Made by a program: the position numbers and the translations under genes. A stretch of DNA of 64,000 bases from Escherichia phage vB_Ec-M-J: sequence record OQ718158.1; one strand, 5' to 3'. Under the pieces are notes generated by a model. That model did not search any database. It saw nothing but the letters and a program-made list of their open reading frames with translations, and was not told the DNA's origin. Positions 49,229 through 55,075 of this stretch are shown piece after piece (within the stretch, counting starts at the first letter, position 1; each line of letters begins with the position of its first letter).

Positions 49229-49611
49229 TGGAAAATATCGTTGTGTATGTAATTGAGTACAATGATGAAATAAAGTACGTAATTAATGGTTATAAACATT
49301 ACTCCAGTGCAGCCAGAAAGCTGGAAATATATTCAAAAGAAGCAAGAAACTACTGCTTAGATGATGATTCAGTTGAGGTTTGGATTGATGGAAATGCAGA
49401 GTACTTTGATGCTAACTTCTATGAAGATCTTGACAAATCAAATGAATTATACATTTATGTAGAAAATGAACGTTATTACACAAATTCTTTGTTTGACATT
49501 ACCGACTCTACGGTGTATGATAATGCTATGGTTAAGTTGTTAAAGATTGACCACGATATGTTTAATAAACATACAATTTGCGGTTTACTCGATTTTTTAA
49601 GAAACTTGTAG
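49228..49611 (+). CDS. hypothetical protein
   Basis: 127-aa ORF. Confidence 0.5.
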   Translation: MENIVVYVIEYNDEIKYVINGYKHYSSAARKLEIYSKEARNYCLDDDSVEVWIDGNAEYFDANFYEDLDKSNELYIYVENERYYTNSLFDITDSTVYDNAMVKLLKIDHDMFNKHTICGLLDFLRNL

Positions 49612-49636
49612 ACAAATACGAACACTGTGATATAAT
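49609..49636 (+). promoter_or_regulatory. sigma70-like promoter (TAGACA-N16-TGATATAAT)
   Basis: -35 TAGACA 49609-49614, -10 TATAAT 49631-49636 preceded by TGA; upstream of clpP. Confidence 0.6.
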
Positions 49637-49670
49637 ACTCACATCAATGAAACAATAGAGGAAAATAACA

Positions 49671-50366
49671 ATGGTTGAACAATTCAATTTTGGTGGTTAT
49701 GCTGGTGGTGAAGTTCGCAACATTTCTATTCCTTATGTAGTTGAAAAAGTTAATGGTGCAGAACGTACTTATGATCTAGCATCTCGTATGATGCAAGACC
49801 GTATCATTTTCCTTGATACTGACTTCAATGACCAAATGGCACATATCATCAAGCAACAATTGGTGTGGTTGGATTCTCAGGGTTCTGAACCAATTACCTT
49901 CTACATTAGTTCTCCTGGTGGTTCAGTACACGCAGGTTTGGGTATCGCTGACATTGCTAAGTCTTGTGTATCTCCTATCCGTACAGTAGTAATGGGTTAT
50001 GCAGCATCAATGGGTTGCTATACACAATCAGTAGTTGGGACTAAAGGTTTCCGTCTAGGTGGTAAGCGTTCTTACTTCATGTGTCATCAAGTAAGTTCCG
50101 GTACTCAGGGTCTGATTACCGATCAGAAGATTTCTTTGAAACACTCTGACGCATTGAACACACTATTGACGAAAGAAATTGCTGAAGCAGTTGGTGTATC
50201 ACACGAACAACTACTGAAAGATGCTGACCGTGACCTGTGGTTGAACGCTGAAGAAGCACTCGAATACGGTGAACATGGTTTCATTGATGGTATCATCCTT
50301 GGTCCACGCAACGAAGAAGGTAAGTATCTCGTCAAACGTCGCGGTGGCGTGGAAGAGTGGGTCTAA
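49671..50366 (+). CDS. clpP: ClpP-family serine protease subunit
   Basis: RIIFLDTDFNDQMAHIIKQQLVWL, ISSPGG, catalytic Ser in GYAASMG and His in FMCHQ align with bacterial ClpP. Confidence 0.9.
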   Translation: MVEQFNFGGYAGGEVRNISIPYVVEKVNGAERTYDLASRMMQDRIIFLDTDFNDQMAHIIKQQLVWLDSQGSEPITFYISSPGGSVHAGLGIADIAKSCVSPIRTVVMGYAASMGCYTQSVVGTKGFRLGGKRSYFMCHQVSSGTQGLITDQKISLKHSDALNTLLTKEIAEAVGVSHEQLLKDADRDLWLNAEEALEYGEHGFIDGIILGPRNEEGKYLVKRRGGVEEWV

Positions 50367-50380
50367 TTTGAATTTCATTT

Positions 50381-50408
50381 GATGCCTCATTTGGGGCATC
50401 TTATTTCT
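50381..50408 (+). terminator. rho-independent terminator
   Basis: hairpin GATGCC...GGCATC followed by TTATTTCT. Confidence 0.6.
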
Positions 50409-50417
50409 GGAGATTAT

Positions 50418-50708
50418 ATGAAAGTTCTTGTACGTAATAATACTGAAGTCAATGATGTGTTGGATGATTCAGAGTTTATTAATGTCGCATTAGATCAGAT
50501 TAGTGCAGTAGCTCTTGAATTGAAAGGTGTTGACGAGGCAGAACGAGTACTCAATGGTTTTTCTATTGTTCTCGAACTAATGCAAGAAGTTCTTATTAAA
50601 AAGAACATTAATCCAATTAACGCAGTTCAACACGCAGAAGCTATGCGTCAAGAACATGGCACATTCTCAGATAAAAAATTCATCAGTACTGACGAGGGGA
50701 AAGAATAA
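50418..50708 (+). CDS. hypothetical protein
   Basis: ATG 50418 after GGAG. Confidence 0.5.
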   Translation: MKVLVRNNTEVNDVLDDSEFINVALDQISAVALELKGVDEAERVLNGFSIVLELMQEVLIKKNINPINAVQHAEAMRQEHGTFSDKKFISTDEGKE

Positions 50709-50709
50709 T

Positions 50710-51156
50710 ATGTCTAATGCACAATACAAAGAAGGTTCTGCCGCGTTTAAAAACAAAGTAGTTTTTAACAATGAACAGCTAAAATCACAGCACCCACTAT
50801 TCCGTCAAGGTTATCGTGCTGCACAAGCTGAAGCTATGAAGAAAAACAACGTAACATTCCCAACAACTCTGTATGATATTCCTAAACGTCCATCAGTGTT
50901 TAAAGCAGAATGGACTGACATTATGGCAGCAACTAAACGTCCTCGTTTTGCTAAACTTCACACTGATGAAGGTCGCTGGATGTTGATGGGTATTATGAAA
51001 GCAGTTGAGAAACAGGCACATACCATCGTTCGTTACAAAGACGTTGTAGCTATGGTTGATAAAGCATTTGATCTTATTCTCCAGTACGGTTATGATGAAG
51101 GTGTACTAACTGTATCTGATTGTGAGCAGTACCAGTACACTCCATTCCAGAAATAA
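50710..51156 (+). CDS. hypothetical protein
   Basis: ATG 50710 after GAGGGGAAAG. Confidence 0.55.
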   Translation: MSNAQYKEGSAAFKNKVVFNNEQLKSQHPLFRQGYRAAQAEAMKKNNVTFPTTLYDIPKRPSVFKAEWTDIMAATKRPRFAKLHTDEGRWMLMGIMKAVEKQAHTIVRYKDVVAMVDKAFDLILQYGYDEGVLTVSDCEQYQYTPFQK

Positions 51157-51163
51157 TTACTTA

Positions 51164-51192
51164 GGGAATCTTTCATGATTCCCATTTTATTT
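51164..51192 (+). terminator. rho-independent terminator
   Basis: hairpin GGGAATC-tttcat-GATTCCC followed by ATTTTATTT. Confidence 0.7.
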
Positions 51193-51428
51193 GCTGCATA
51201 TCAAAAATTATTGATCAAAAATTGATCCATACGAGGTAAATACCCAAGGTGTAATTGTTAATAGGGTAGGTGGATATGCAGCAATATAAATTATCTGAAG
51301 ATCAAAGTGATTTATTTTTCAATCACATGTTTTTAATTGATGAATTTGCCGAAAGTTAAAATTCAGAGGCAATAGCTATAGTTAAAAAGTGGTATTCTTG
51401 CTATAACAAGAACAAAAAATGGTATTGG

Positions 51429-51794
51429 TTGAATAGAAATTTAAAATCATTTCTAGGAACAATAACTAGTACTGATAGTATTGAACTAATATATAGTTCC
51501 ATTGGCTATAGTTACTTAACCAAGCATAATAATACGTCAATAGAGTCTGGCTTTAAAATCAAGCGTCTAATGAAATTGACGGGATTGAGTGCAGAAACTA
51601 TACAAAACGATACAGAAAAGTTATGGAAGATTATAGAATTCATGAATAAAAATATGTCATTTATATATAGAAACTATGATATATTCACTGATGTACGACA
51701 ATTTTATAAGAGTCCATATTCACTTAATGAGAAATATTTCCGACACATGGAATTATGCTCAACTATGGTTGATGAATGGAATTTAGAGGATTAA
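51429..51794 (+). CDS. hypothetical protein
   Basis: ORF begins at TTG with no ATG; reading frame is open upstream back to a TAA at 51357-51359. Confidence 0.4.
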   Translation: MNRNLKSFLGTITSTDSIELIYSSIGYSYLTKHNNTSIESGFKIKRLMKLTGLSAETIQNDTEKLWKIIEFMNKNMSFIYRNYDIFTDVRQFYKSPYSLNEKYFRHMELCSTMVDEWNLED

Positions 51795-51795
51795 T

Positions 51796-52323
51796 ATGAA
51801 ATACACTGCTCTTAGCCCAACTGATACTAAAGTATGGTTGAGTAATTTGAACAAAACTATTATTTTAACCAAAAAAGTGATATCAACAGCTAATTCATTA
51901 GATGTAAATATCAAGAAGAATGTTCTTAAATATCATCACCGAAGTAAACTTAGTACTTGGTACTCCAATATTTTTTACGGCTTATATGGGATGGATGATA
52001 TTTTAATTGGTACATCATCTGGGTCATGCTTCAGTGCTGGTGGTATGTGCTTTATGGATTTGGGTTTTTCATTATCCGATGAAGAAATCGAGTTTAAACA
52101 ATTCCGTGACAAGTTACTGGGTTCGGGTGATATCAAGTTCTGTACAGAATTAATGGGAGCATGGGACGTTTATGCAGCGAAACCATTTGACATTGAAGAA
52201 TCAGATGTGCTAAACTACCTTCGTGTTCTTAAAATACATTCGAACTGTAAAACCAAATTACAATCCCTAGGAGTATATGATGAAACACTTGACGTGGTTG
52301 AAGATAGCCGAAGTCGTGGCTGA
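51796..52323 (+). CDS. hypothetical protein
   Basis: 175-aa ORF; GAGGA RBS. Confidence 0.55.
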   Translation: MKYTALSPTDTKVWLSNLNKTIILTKKVISTANSLDVNIKKNVLKYHHRSKLSTWYSNIFYGLYGMDDILIGTSSGSCFSAGGMCFMDLGFSLSDEEIEFKQFRDKLLGSGDIKFCTELMGAWDVYAAKPFDIEESDVLNYLRVLKIHSNCKTKLQSLGVYDETLDVVEDSRSRG

Positions 52324-52759
52324 AGAGAGTAAATGCATTTCACAGAAAGTTGGTTGTGTTATTGTTAAAAATAACCGAGTATTGAGTACTGGTTATAATG
52401 GCACTCCATCTAAACAACCTAACTGCTGTGACGCTAATGAGCACTTAGTTAATGGTGGACGTTTCCAAGACTGGGTTAGCGATGACGCAAAGCATGAACA
52501 CCATGAATGGAGTAATATCCATGAAATCCATGCTGAAATGAATGCATTGTTATACAGTTCACCTACCGAACGTCAGGGAGCAACACTTTACACAACGCTG
52601 CAACCATGCTATACTTGTTCTAAGTTGATCGCGGGAAGTGGTATTGCTCGCGTGATTTATCACAAAAGTTATCCTCGCACTCCACCAGAAGCTATTAAAG
52701 TACTGGAAGATGCTGGGATTATTGTAAATTGCATTTATGATAAGGGGTTGGGACTTTGA
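52277..52759 (+). CDS. dCMP deaminase (T4 Cd-like)
   Basis: N-terminus LKIAEVVAEESKC, then zinc-binding HAE and PCYTC motifs and STGYNGTPS, as in T4 Cd. Confidence 0.85.
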   Translation: MMKHLTWLKIAEVVAEESKCISQKVGCVIVKNNRVLSTGYNGTPSKQPNCCDANEHLVNGGRFQDWVSDDAKHEHHEWSNIHEIHAEMNALLYSSPTERQGATLYTTLQPCYTCSKLIAGSGIARVIYHKSYPRTPPEAIKVLEDAGIIVNCIYDKGLGL

Positions 52760-53016
52760 CTTTCTTGATTTTAGGTATCCCATTTGCAGTTGTGATTCTT
52801 GTACTTTTAGTGATGATGGTATTAAATGATAATACTACTCCACCAGTGATGCGTAATCATGAAGTACGATTTTCAGCACAAAACAACAAGTACTACATTG
52901 TAAATTGTTTAACTTGTAAAGAGTATAAAGTAACTGGTAAATTTGGTTTTACCATTTATTATAAAGACCGTGTTGAAGCTGACATGATTTGTCAGAAACT
53001 TAATACGGTAGAATAA
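52756..53016 (+). CDS. hypothetical small membrane protein
   Basis: TTG start after AAGGGG; N-terminal hydrophobic helix. Confidence 0.4.
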   Translation: MTFLILGIPFAVVILVLLVMMVLNDNTTPPVMRNHEVRFSAQNNKYYIVNCLTCKEYKVTGKFGFTIYYKDRVEADMICQKLNTVE

Positions 53017-53024
53017 AAAAAAAA

Positions 53025-53050
53025 GGAGCCATAAGGCTCCTTTTTCTTTT
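53025..53050 (+). terminator. rho-independent terminator
   Basis: A-run, hairpin GGAGCC-ataa-GGCTCC, then TTTTTCTTTT. Confidence 0.7.
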
Positions 53051-53137
53051 GTTAGTACACAACTTGTTTGAATTTCAGGAAAACTCTTAGATCCAACAAC
53101 GAGTTCAGTACTACCACGTTATTTGTTGACAAAAGCA

Positions 53138-53165
53138 TAGACATTATACATTAGTGTGATATAAT
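53138..53165 (+). promoter_or_regulatory. sigma70-like promoter (TAGACA-N16-TGATATAAT)
   Basis: -35 TAGACA 53138-53143, -10 TATAAT 53160-53165 preceded by TGTGA. Confidence 0.55.
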
Positions 53166-53232
53166 CATTCAAAAGAAGGTAAAAAGGTGGGATGATTCTG
53201 CGAGGGAATTTGTGAAGTGATATAAAAAACAA

Positions 53233-53260
53233 TTTGACTTAAGTTAAATCTTCCTATAAT
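53233..53260 (+). promoter_or_regulatory. sigma70-like promoter
   Basis: -35 TTTGAC(T) 53233-53239, -10 TATAAT 53255-53260. Confidence 0.45.
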
Positions 53261-53300
53261 ATTATTTATGTAATCAACAATCAACTAAGAGGGTTAACCA

Positions 53301-53909
53301 GTGGTACGATTATGTAAAGAAATCATCCAATCTATTATTATTATTTTCTTAATTAACTTTCCTGCAAGTGCAGGTGTTGAAAGAAAAAGTATCATTAGAT
53401 ATGATGAATCTAAACAGACAGTTCAGTTCATTTCAACTTTAACTGAAAATACTGTAAACCGTTTGATGGTTTTTAGAGAAACACACCCATTTGACACTAT
53501 CATCATTACGTCACCTGGTGGTGATTTTGATGCGGGAGTGGCACTAGGAAATTTTGTCAATGATAACAATTTAACAATTATTGTTGAAAGATATTGTAAT
53601 TCTTCTTGCACTATCGCATTCTTTAGTGCTAATATAGAAAACAGATACATGATGAAGGACTCAATTCTAGGTCTACATAATGTGTCAATCGAAAGTAAAG
53701 CACGAAATAGTGATGACACATACATATCAGTTCGCCAAATGACTATTTTTGCTGAACAGCTATCAACTAAGGTTGGTGTTCTATTTGCGTTATATGCAGC
53801 GAATGGTATTCCTCCAGAATTGTTAGTGGAGGTTAGTAAGGTTCGTGGTAATGAAGTTGTGAGACTTACACCAGATCAGTTGCTCGAATTAGGTAGTATC
53901 ATTCATTAG
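53301..53909 (+). CDS. exported ClpP/S49-like (crotonase-fold) peptidase-like protein
   Basis: GTG start after AGAGGG; N-terminal signal-like IIQSIIIIFLINFPASA; ITSPGGDFDAG ... CNSSCTIAFF ... LGLHN resembles the ClpP active-site scaffold. Confidence 0.45.
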   Translation: MVRLCKEIIQSIIIIFLINFPASAGVERKSIIRYDESKQTVQFISTLTENTVNRLMVFRETHPFDTIIITSPGGDFDAGVALGNFVNDNNLTIIVERYCNSSCTIAFFSANIENRYMMKDSILGLHNVSIESKARNSDDTYISVRQMTIFAEQLSTKVGVLFALYAANGIPPELLVEVSKVRGNEVVRLTPDQLLELGSIIH

Positions 53910-54001: not shown

Positions 54002-54262
54002 ATGACAAATTTACAAAACTTAACATCTCTTGTTTTTTATGCAACAACTATTGTATATTGCATTACATTAGTTTTAACATGTTTCATCTATAAAGACTAC
54101 AAACGTGGTTTTATGGATTCCAGTACACACAAATTTGCATCCAAGTTAGAAGCAGGAATTTACTATGTTCTATCAATTTCTTATGGAGCATGTTTACTTA
54201 CACTAGGGTTGCTGATATACTGGTTGTATACGGCACTTTTTGCACAAGGAGTTATTTCATGA
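54002..54262 (+). CDS. hypothetical small membrane protein
   Basis: 86 aa; AGGAG RBS; hydrophobic helices. Confidence 0.5.
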   Translation: MTNLQNLTSLVFYATTIVYCITLVLTCFIYKDYKRGFMDSSTHKFASKLEAGIYYVLSISYGACLLTLGLLIYWLYTALFAQGVIS

Positions 54263-54852
54263 CTTGTATTATCGCTCACACAAATGGCACATCTTCCTTC
54301 ATCGCTGGTGATAAATTAGGAAGCAATGGTTTCACTAAAGCAGTTCAAACTGAGCCTAAAGTGTTTGAGAAAGAGTTCATTAAACTCAATGAGGATGGTC
54401 TTTCTCGCACTAAAGAAGTAATGGCGTTGGGGTATACTACCTCGTTCCGCATGGGACAGTTGTTGAATTACAACCTAACTCTACCAGAACAAGTTGCAGG
54501 GGAAACCTTTTCACAGTATCTAGTACTGAAAGTTATTCCTATCATTCGTCAAATGTTTAAAGATGAATGGGGTGCTCGTGATGCATCACAAGATGTTGGT
54601 GGTGGTCAGTTCATTATTCTTCATAATCATACGATTTATGAAGTTCAAGAAGACTTTTCAGTACTGCAACCTAAAACACAAATTACTGCTGTCGGAAGTG
54701 GGACTTATCATGCAATTGCATCCATGTCAGCGTATATTGAAGTTCAAGAAGAAACCAATGTTCAGTTACATGAACGTGTTGAGTCTATTTTCAAAATTGT
54801 TAGTGATAATGTAACAAGTGTTAGTCCAGAGTTTGATATTTTGAAATACTGA
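54259..54852 (+). CDS. HslV/proteasome-beta-like Ntn hydrolase
   Basis: N-terminus M-TCIIAHTNGTSSFIAGDKLGSNG aligns with HslV [23 protein letters not shown] (Thr would be residue 1 after Met removal); later ITAVGSGTYHAIAS resembles HslV GSGG region; AAGGAG RBS. Confidence 0.6.
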   Translation: MTCIIAHTNGTSSFIAGDKLGSNGFTKAVQTEPKVFEKEFIKLNEDGLSRTKEVMALGYTTSFRMGQLLNYNLTLPEQVAGETFSQYLVLKVIPIIRQMFKDEWGARDASQDVGGGQFIILHNHTIYEVQEDFSVLQPKTQITAVGSGTYHAIASMSAYIEVQEETNVQLHERVESIFKIVSDNVTSVSPEFDILKY

Positions 54853-54883
54853 GAATAATAATTATAAAGAGAGAGTGTATCTG

Positions 54884-55075
54884 ATGGCATACATAATTTA
54901 CGAGTGGATTTTTTGTTTCATAGTTGTGTTTATTTGTGTGGTGTTATACAATCACACTAAATGTTTATACCGAGAATTCAGGAATGGTAATAAACATGGA
55001 CACAATAAGTGGATGTATGTCTATCATATTGCTATCATTGTATTTTTAGTATTAAACTTGATACTTTTTATATAA
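54884..55075 (+). CDS. hypothetical small membrane protein
   Basis: hydrophobic ~63-aa ORF (alternative GTG 54875). Confidence 0.4.
   Translation: MAYIIYEWIFCFIVVFICVVLYNHTKCLYREFRNGNKHGHNKWMYVYHIAIIVFLVLNLILFI

Follow-up and report, generated by a model that had tools for sequence, protein, structure and literature searches.

A ClpP with a probable phage-encoded unfoldase partner and a predicted exported ClpP-fold peptidase in an Escherichia jumbo phage

Escherichia phage vB_Ec-M-J (sequence record OQ718158.1) carries three protease genes within a stretch of 64,000 nucleotides of its DNA, which we call the window. All three lie on the + strand and encode a ClpP (49671..50366), a ClpP-like protein with a predicted signal peptide (53301..53909), and an HslV-like protein (54259..54852); they appear to be three independent protease subunits of the self-compartmentalising type. 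We consider it fairly probable that the ClpP works in a phage-specified ClpAP protease, that the ClpP-like protein is a Sec-exported, ATP-independent ClpP-fold Ser/His peptidase, and that the HslV-like protein is a threonine peptidase without an ATPase of phage origin.

ClpP and ClpA are already annotated and discussed in the literature, and all three window genes are already named as proteases in GenBank records; the comparative papers treat only ClpP and ClpA (PMC7824862, PMC6102473). What we add to the known ClpP annotation is that its partner unfoldase is probably encoded by the phage as well. The exported ClpP-fold family, with its CxSxC nucleophile motif, is modestly new. A preliminary description of the window, made from the letters alone, had drawn attention to this group of genes, and the sequence features that it named are all present.

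The 6-kb region around the protease genes is 99.1% identical to Escherichia phage WPEC5, 98-99% identical to phages Ecwhy_1, fEgEco12, EC.P1, CMSTMSU, Turkey3, TH47, and WPEC3, and ~80% identical to the PBECO4, 121Q, and phAPEC6 group. We assign the source phage by sequence to the jumbo myoviruses of the genus Asteriusvirus, in the Rak2-like clade (PMC13070987). The relatives named here have genomes of 350-385 kb.

ClpP and a phage-encoded ClpA

The open reading frame (ORF) at 49671..50366 (+ strand) encodes a protein of 231 amino acids that matches ClpP (peptidase S14) in Pfam, the PDB, and NCBIfam. The match to Pfam CLP_protease (PF00574) has an E value of 1.3e-41 and spans profile positions 2-179 of 182. 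In the PDB, 109 solved ClpP sequences are matched at E<1e-3, the best of them S. pneumoniae ClpP (3.3e-36), with E. coli ClpP at 4e-31. Identity to the ClpP of E. coli MG1655 is 36-37%. Like the E. coli enzyme, the phage protein has a Ser-His-Asp triad, an SPGG oxyanion region, and a conserved N-terminal gating segment, IPYVVEKVNGAERTYDLASR. Ser113 (50007-50009), His139 (50085-50087), and Asp188 (50232-50234) pair with E. coli Ser97, His122, and Asp171 and are invariant in an alignment of 15 sequences. The Pfam match and the intact triad bear out the earlier label of a canonical ClpP. Because the protein scores under the equivalog cutoffs of the NCBIfam ClpP models (153-156 bits against cutoffs of 249-309), we regard it on sequence grounds as a genuine but divergent member of the family.

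Its homologues at 60-95% identity form a clade found in Rak2, GAP32, Erwinia phages, other Rak2-like phages, and metagenomic contigs. Bacterial ClpPs come after this clade, with at most 45% identity to the phage protein. A recent capture of the gene from the host was ruled out, given the 36-37% identity to E. coli ClpP and the existence of a phage clade at 60-95%. Members of the clade differ from E. coli ClpP in several ways. They have a variable N-terminal extension, 19 amino acids long in the window ClpP, which by analogy with E. coli is possibly a propeptide. Two other features, neither of them present in bacterial ClpPs, are an insertion of 3 residues ahead of the GF(I/V)D motif and a C-terminal tail of ~20 amino acids that the clade conserves (RNEEGKYLVKRRGGVEEWV). 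The tail could modulate unfoldase docking. A survey of jumbo phages describes ClpP as their most prominent patchily distributed, probably host-directed peptidase (Iyer et al. 2021, PMC7824862).

We then searched the whole genome of phage TH47 (352 kb, unannotated, 98% identical to the window) by tblastn with the E. coli Clp and Hsl proteins. The search found a 762-amino-acid ORF at 289538-291823 on the - strand, with 43% identity to E. coli ClpA over 732 amino acids (577 bits). Its counterpart in fEgEco12 is g327 (168077-170362), so that the gene lies outside the window. No homologues of ClpX, ClpS, or HslU were found in the whole TH47 genome with the E. coli queries. Colinear with ClpA, the ClpA-like protein has two AAA modules, a D2-small domain, and no ClpB-type middle domain. 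Its segment KRSIGMSG aligns with the ClpP-docking loop of ClpA, RKSIGLIH; the tripeptide IGM falls exactly at the IGL position, in a loop that ClpB-type disaggregases have lost. The protein is at least 99% identical in the eight closest relatives, 75% in Rak2, 61% in CBB, and 41% in PA5oct. Many GenBank records annotate it as ClpA. Conservation of ClpA in Rak2-like phages has been described, and the Clp-family genes of Atu_ph07 have been listed (Attai et al. 2018, PMC6102473).

Because a ClpA-type unfoldase with an IGM docking loop is encoded ~88 kb from ClpP (g327 and g207 in fEgEco12), we infer that a phage-specified ClpAP is the likeliest mechanism for ClpP. The phage ClpP, which most likely assembles into the usual barrel, would be fed by the phage ClpA-type AAA+ unfoldase to give a cytoplasmic ClpAP protease. 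Candidate substrates of ClpP would be host proteins, defence proteins, or phage proteins that are misfolded or oversized; the preliminary description had suggested that it may act on host or phage regulatory proteins. Since the phage encodes a ClpA, the picture of a lone ClpP working with host factors gives way to that of a probable phage-encoded ClpAP. The likeness to the bacterial machine lies in the 43% identity, the colinearity, the two AAA modules, and the IGM tripeptide. It differs from the bacterial one in that TH47 has neither ClpS nor ClpX and that the ClpA and ClpP genes are far apart, with no host-like arrangement. With both halves of a ClpAP machine encoded by Asteriusviruses, the idea of phage-controlled degradation in the cytoplasm becomes directly testable in E. 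coli.

Another possibility is that the phage ClpP serves the ClpX or ClpA of the host, or that it forms mixed assemblies with host ClpP or titrates it, in which case the ClpA-like protein of the phage would be an independent disaggregase or chaperone. Use of host unfoldases or interference with host ClpP is plausible, and we judge this whole alternative unlikely. In its favor, the phage ClpP has an almost canonical N-terminal gating loop, a site of contact with ClpX and ClpA, the two phage genes sit 88 kb apart in different genomic modules, and lambda and other phages are established to depend on host ClpXP (cited in PMC6102473). Against it, the phage ClpA keeps IGM at the site of the ClpP-docking loop. 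ClpP and ClpA-like genes are both found in several lineages (Asteriusvirus, Rak2, CBB, and Erwinia pEa_SNUABM), as surveyed by lineage and not genome by genome. The same strict promoter motif, described below, precedes both genes. In addition, the phage ClpPs have clade-specific changes at F82 (to S or N) and L114 (to G or T; E. coli numbering). We take these two to be positions of the unfoldase-docking pocket.

The same pocket changes also count against the ClpAP reading, as do two further points. The unfoldase partner of the phage ClpP cannot be read from its sequence. Also, the ClpA-like gene of fEgEco12 is flanked by tail, baseplate, and structural genes and is transcribed divergently from its upstream neighbors. 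As a separate observation, the ClpA-like gene adjoins the gene for a ~380-kDa virion protein and has a sigma70-like promoter of its own.

Several GenBank records carry the name "head maturation protease" for ClpP, and its best PHROG match is phrog_94, "head maturation protease" (9.5e-44). This annotation implies a morphogenetic protease that acts in head maturation or scaffold removal, a role that we find very improbable. In phAPEC6, the genes for the major head protein (gp225c), the scaffold (gp226c), a "prohead core scaffold and protease" (gp227c), and the portal (gp230c) form one head block. The gp227c gene, flanked by those for scaffold and portal and next to that for the major head protein, has a product that matches Pfam Peptidase_S77 (T4 gp21 type) with an E value of 9.9e-21. 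This protein is 96-100% conserved across all Asteriusviruses, including the closest relatives of the window. The S77 gene is ~118-120 kb from the ClpP region in Ecwhy_1 and Turkey3; in TH47, on a circular map, ~125 kb separate it from ClpP. The 64-kb window has no S77 or capsid match. Mass spectrometry of phAPEC6 virions detected gp227c; ClpP (gp353c), the ClpP-like protein (gp346c), and the HslV-like protein (gp345c) are not in the list of virion proteins (PMC7247149).

The ClpP sequence points the same way. It contains no fused scaffold or capsid domain, and cellular ClpP models score it three times as high as NF045542, the "ClpP-related head maturation protease" model, which gives 51 bits against a cutoff of 120. 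The promoter-like site upstream of the gene is sigma70-like and not of the late type. The capsid-maturation enzyme would instead be the T4 gp21-type S77 protease next to the capsid gene. The preliminary description had preferred a role other than head maturation for ClpP and had considered that a different protease might adjoin the capsid genes elsewhere in the genome; the close relatives agree with it on both counts, since their block of capsid, scaffold, S77, and portal genes lies 118-125 kb from ClpP.

On the side of a morphogenetic role, the ClpA gene of the phage lies within a group of tail and structural genes, and mass spectrometry of CBB virions found one ClpP peptide, with 4.5% coverage (PMC5259590). 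The CBB peptide also speaks against a purely cytoplasmic ClpAP, and a role of ClpP and ClpA in virion assembly or in quality control of structural proteins is still conceivable.

The HK97-lineage ClpP/S49-like prohead proteases (NF045542, phrog_94) are likewise phage encoded and have the ClpP fold, and automatic pipelines put their name on both the 49671 and the 53301 ORFs. Unlike that lineage, the clade of the window phage uses an S77 protease by the capsid gene. Neither ORF adjoins capsid, scaffold, or portal genes, and neither product is in the phAPEC6 virion proteome. Our analysis corrects what is a common misannotation of ClpP.

A ClpP-fold protein with a predicted signal peptide

The second protease gene (53301..53909, + strand) encodes 202 amino acids from a GTG start preceded by AAGAGGG. 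The N-terminus of the protein reads MVRLCKE-IIQSIIIIFLINF-PASA↓G. In a heuristic analysis, residues 1-24 (53301..53372), MVRLCKEIIQSIIIIFLINFPASA followed by G, make up a predicted Sec signal peptide with an n-region charge of +2, a hydrophobic core at about residues 8-21, and A-S-A↓G at positions 24/25. P-A-S-A↓G is a conserved site of the classic SPase I type. All close orthologues keep the FPASA motif, and an equivalent signal-peptide anatomy is seen in 20 of the 21 members of the subfamily. Together with an invariant pair of cysteines, this anatomy supports the signal-peptide-like N-terminus that had been noticed earlier.

The strings of a ClpP-like scaffold that the preliminary description had picked out are present (ITSPGGD, YCNSSCTIAFF, and LGLHN). 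They include the oxyanion-region motif S71-P-G73-G74, Cys99 (53595-53597), Ser101 (53601-53603), Cys103 (53607-53609), and His126 (53676-53678). Single-sequence comparisons detect little. The match to Pfam CLP_protease is marginal (E 4.4e-4, 20.6 bits against a cutoff of 20.2), the NCBIfam ClpP models give 19-22 bits against cutoffs of 228-251, a PDB search with the single sequence had no matches and only profiles were significant, and a word-index homologue search returned only 10 close phage relatives. When a profile was run against 1.84 billion representative proteins, 1486 matched at E<=1e-3.

In an alignment of 135 family members, every sequence has G73, G74, C99, S101, and C103, and at least 90% keep S71 and H126. 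Profile-profile alignment (hhalign) to a ClpP alignment, at 93% probability, pairs Ser101 with ClpP Ser97 and His126 with His122, so the Ser/His dyad, whose absence would have spoken against the earlier suggestion, is retained on proper alignment. AlphaFold gave a pLDDT of 49.5 on a shallow alignment and a pLDDT of 91.4 with a pTM of 0.80 on the 135-sequence alignment. In the model, as in ClpP, Ser101 occupies the turn that joins strand 92-100 to helix 103-109, and His126 comes after strand 122-125. We conclude from the model that the protein has a predicted ClpP-type fold. In the family, the acidic third member of the triad has no invariant counterpart; the residue at position 185 is usually D, E, N, or S. 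Because of this, the Pfam score barely over the cutoff, and the low NCBIfam scores, we place the protein in what appears to be a separate family within the ClpP clan and not in ClpP proper.

The ~200-amino-acid subfamily is specific to jumbo phages. Its Rak2 orthologue, at about 31-32% identity, occupies the same position relative to ClpP, and the best viral structural neighbor is a Rak2 "uncharacterized protein." Distant family members are bacterial and 230-300 amino acids long. A scan of species-representative genomes with the pattern CxS[SA]CANY[IVL]F gave 575 confirmed loci. The 80 best of these are mostly from Gamma- and Betaproteobacteria (Alteromonadales, Vibrio, Shewanella, Kangiella, Massilia, and Pseudomonas), and these 80 showed no conserved gene neighbor, only antisense-ORF artefacts and local synteny within genera. 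The bacterial family with this pattern, in at least 575 species genomes, also has a WHG/FHG histidine. Among 159 retrieved proteins, CxSxC is found in 157, a hydrophobic N-terminus in 144, and a lipobox-like motif in 21. Beyond the marginal CLP_protease match, Pfam has no dedicated model for the family, and NCBIfam gives weak sub-threshold matches of ClpP type. A literature search found no published analysis of an exported ClpP-like family or of periplasmic or exported ClpP-like phage proteins. Our analysis defines a family of predicted exported proteins with a clear catalytic signature, which comprises 150 or more representative clusters and 575 or more bacterial species, in addition to the Rak2-like phages.

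The two cysteines that flank the nucleophile are not found in cytoplasmic ClpPs. Because this pair is invariant where cytoplasmic ClpPs have Ala and Gly, we infer that Cys99-x-Ser-x-Cys103 probably forms a disulfide bracket around the nucleophile, as would fit an oxidising compartment. The protein would be exported by Sec and act as a ClpP-fold serine hydrolase with a Ser101/His126 pair. The periplasm has neither ATP nor an AAA+ partner, so the enzyme would have to act independently of ATP, as a periplasmic peptidase in the manner of SppA, and its likely substrates would be envelope or periplasmic peptides and proteins. The earlier term "secreted peptidase" fits the signal-peptide features; for a Gram-negative host, a Sec-exported periplasmic enzyme is the better wording.

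SppA (S49) and NfeD/1510-N are ATP-independent members of the ClpP clan located in the envelope, which raises an alternative. The 53301 protein might not be a free periplasmic protease at all, being instead a membrane-anchored enzyme with an uncleaved signal, similar to SppA or TepA, that clears signal peptides or helps secretion, or else a ClpP/crotonase-fold protein with a non-peptide substrate. We regard this as doubtful. SppA and NfeD use Ser-Lys dyads, and the 53301 family has no conserved Lys. Its Ser and His align with the ClpP pair and are (nearly) invariant across the family, and the SPase I-type site is conserved. Three observations nevertheless favor the alternative and weigh against a cleaved, periplasmic peptidase. 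At 19 residues, the uncharged N-terminal stretch would also suit a membrane anchor that is not cleaved. The family lacks an invariant third member of the catalytic set, and its profile alignment to ClpP stops short of the Asp region. Finally, the Pfam match is marginal.

Two proteins of the locus diverge fastest, one of them being the ClpP-like protein. Its identity is 52% to phAPEC6 and about 31-32% to Rak2. The corresponding values are 96% and 70% for ClpP, 94% and 79% for the dCMP deaminase, and 90% and 62% for Sir2; the product of ORF 51796-52323 is similar to the ClpP-like protein, at 50%. A more ambitious account, which we offer as speculation with a low chance of being right as a whole, is that the 53301 protein belongs to a previously undescribed family of exported, ATP-independent ClpP-fold proteases marked by a signal peptide or lipobox, TSxGG, a disulfide-bracketed CxSxC, and the Ser/His pair. 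This family would be spread across the Proteobacteria and would have been captured by Rak2-like jumbo phages. In these phages a strong sigma70-type promoter would drive its expression, and the enzyme would remodel or break down envelope or periplasmic proteins of the host. Its fast divergence would then reflect an arms race, with 52% identity next to a ClpP at 96%. If this were so, the protease might be used, for example, for superinfection exclusion, receptor removal, or neutralising envelope-based defence. If active in the periplasm, the protein would join the short list of envelope proteases as a ClpP-like chamber or peptidase, and jumbo phages would have in it a tool for acting on the envelope of the host.

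On a metagenomic jumbo-phage contig, the genes after a homologue of the ClpP-like gene are a NadR-like one (CTP_transf_like plus NUDIX) and a NAMPT gene, and the metagenomic homologue also has genes for large Big_2 proteins beside it. We assume that this set of NadR-like, NAMPT, and Big_2 genes is typical of large phages. In the window, Sir2 and NUDIX genes come after the ClpP-like and HslV-like genes, so an NAD-related link recurs.

The HslV-like protein and the grouping of the three genes

The gene at 54259..54852 (+ strand) encodes a 197-amino-acid Ntn threonine peptidase subunit of the HslV type, recognized by a PHROG match and by profile comparison to HslV structures. The gene mentioned in the preliminary description is real, and we moved its start from the first in-frame ATG at 54190 to 54259 (MTCIIAH...). 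The protein matches phrog_1040, "peptidase HslV family," with an E value of 1.9e-23. As a single sequence it has no significant PDB match (E 0.16); a profile of 29 sequences finds HslV structures first, at 2.7e-7, and proteasome beta subunits and BPH next. Across the 29 homologues, M1, T2, C3, D18, K34, G146, and G148 are invariant, and in the profile alignment T2 (54262-54264), D18, and K34 pair with HslV Thr1, Asp17, and Lys33. A Thr at position 2 is exposed by ordinary removal of Met. The phage protein thus resembles HslV (ClpQ) in the Thr directly after Met, the equivalents of Asp17 and Lys33, and the GSG (G146-S-G148). It differs in its overall identity to E. coli HslV, ~21%, in scores far under the NCBIfam cutoffs, and in an insertion of ~16 residues found in the Asteriusvirus/Rak2-like branch.

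A further difference is that no HslU is encoded. The whole TH47 genome contains no HslU homologue, and its only AAA matches in this search lie inside the ClpA-like gene. Because the phage encodes no HslU, the N-terminal-threonine peptidase would borrow HslU from the host or work alone. Upstream of the gene, and possibly coupled to it in translation, is a small ORF of 86 amino acids with two hydrophobic, candidate transmembrane (TM) segments (54002..54262, + strand), the stop of which overlaps the HslV-like start (ATGA). It is 65% identical in phAPEC6, where it is unannotated. This ORF may be cotranslated with the HslV-like gene, and its product might tether or regulate the peptidase. Two more + strand ORFs with strongly hydrophobic segments, of 86 amino acids (52756-53016) and 66 amino acids (54875-55075), flank the ClpP-like and HslV-like genes. 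With the ORF at 54002, they make the 52.7-55.1 kb interval rich in envelope-directed products.

The preliminary description had called the three genes together an unusual proteolytic toolkit. Three protease genes are indeed there. The phrase overstates the case, since the linkage of ClpP to the ClpP-like gene is kept from Asteriusvirus to Rak2 and GenBank already names all three proteases. By a narrow balance, we favor the view that these are three unrelated protease genes that are merely neighbors in a long array of small auxiliary genes and form no functional unit. They are separated by MazG-like, dCMP deaminase, and hypothetical genes and by terminator-like sites, and their products would act in different compartments with different chemistries. 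The HslV-like gene is missing at the equivalent Rak2 locus, which argues against a fixed three-gene module and against reading the three proteins as one system. PADLOC found no defence-system match for any of the three. On the other side, the spacing of ~4.3 kb between ClpP and the ClpP-like gene is kept from Asteriusvirus to Rak2, and distant metagenomic relatives of the three proteins seem to share contigs, which suggests some association. For the three genes taken as a set, the cluster is likely an accident of gene order.

Promoter-like sites and genomic setting

A sigma70-like site, TAGACA-N11-TGTGATATAAT, with an extended -10, lies 34 nucleotides upstream of the ClpP start (49609..49636, + strand). 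It scored 11/12 in a consensus scan, and its -35 and -10 elements read TAGACA-16-TATAAT. A hairpin followed by a T-run, resembling an intrinsic terminator, is at 50381..50400 (+ strand), in the gap that separates the stop of ClpP from the following start (50418). The promoter and terminator of its own that had been ascribed to ClpP are thus both there as predicted sites, by match to a consensus. The consensus scan found a second perfect copy of TAGACA-N11-TGTGATATAAT at 53138..53165 (+ strand), 135 nucleotides upstream of the ClpP-like start. Before it, a terminator-like hairpin with an 11-bp stem (53020..53045, + strand) closes the upstream unit.

The motif class [TG][TAG]GACA-N11-NGTGATATAAT occurs seven times in the window, always on the + strand (12720, 25711, 27414, 33508, 41952, 49609, and 53138), against 1.05 occurrences expected. 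The 352-kb TH47 genome has 13 sites, on one strand only, and shuffled sequence has none. Five strict TH47 matches precede the 442-amino-acid AAA ATPase (two tandem copies), ClpA-like, ClpP, and ClpP-like genes; upstream of the ClpA-like gene the site is TTGACA-N11-TGTGATATAAT, 38 nucleotides before the ATG. In phAPEC6 and 121Q, the motif is kept 62 nucleotides upstream of the ClpP start. The shared motif suggests common strong expression by the host polymerase.

The motif also appears to be a general strong promoter type of the phage clade, and it was not found upstream of the ClpP-like gene in phAPEC6 and 121Q. Both points count against joint control of the proteases, and because of them we rejected a dedicated proteostasis regulon as a firm claim. 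Other copies of the motif precede genes for a gp32-like SSB and HNH endonucleases, and the GTGATATAAT element is present also in Rak2 and a metagenomic relative.

The window has a G+C content of ~35%, and its ORFs are almost all on the + strand. Neighbors of the protease genes include auxiliary genes for DNA ligase, a metallophosphoesterase, dCMP deaminase, Sir2, NUDIX, and PhoH, and the region appears to be an auxiliary-gene part of a jumbo coliphage. No capsid, scaffold, or portal genes are near the protease genes in the window. To that extent, the earlier statement that ClpP lies far from visible structural genes stands; it needs to be qualified for two genes. The product of ORF 51796-52323 (+ strand) matches phrog_19307, "virion structural protein," in a PHROG search, and a PhoH-like protein encoded downstream was detected by mass spectrometry in phAPEC6 virions. 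The phAPEC6 counterpart of ORF 51796-52323, gp349c, is not in the virion mass-spectrometry table. This ORF has the only structural-type annotation close to the proteases, and it overlaps the start of the dCMP deaminase gene (52277-52759, + strand) by 47 nucleotides.

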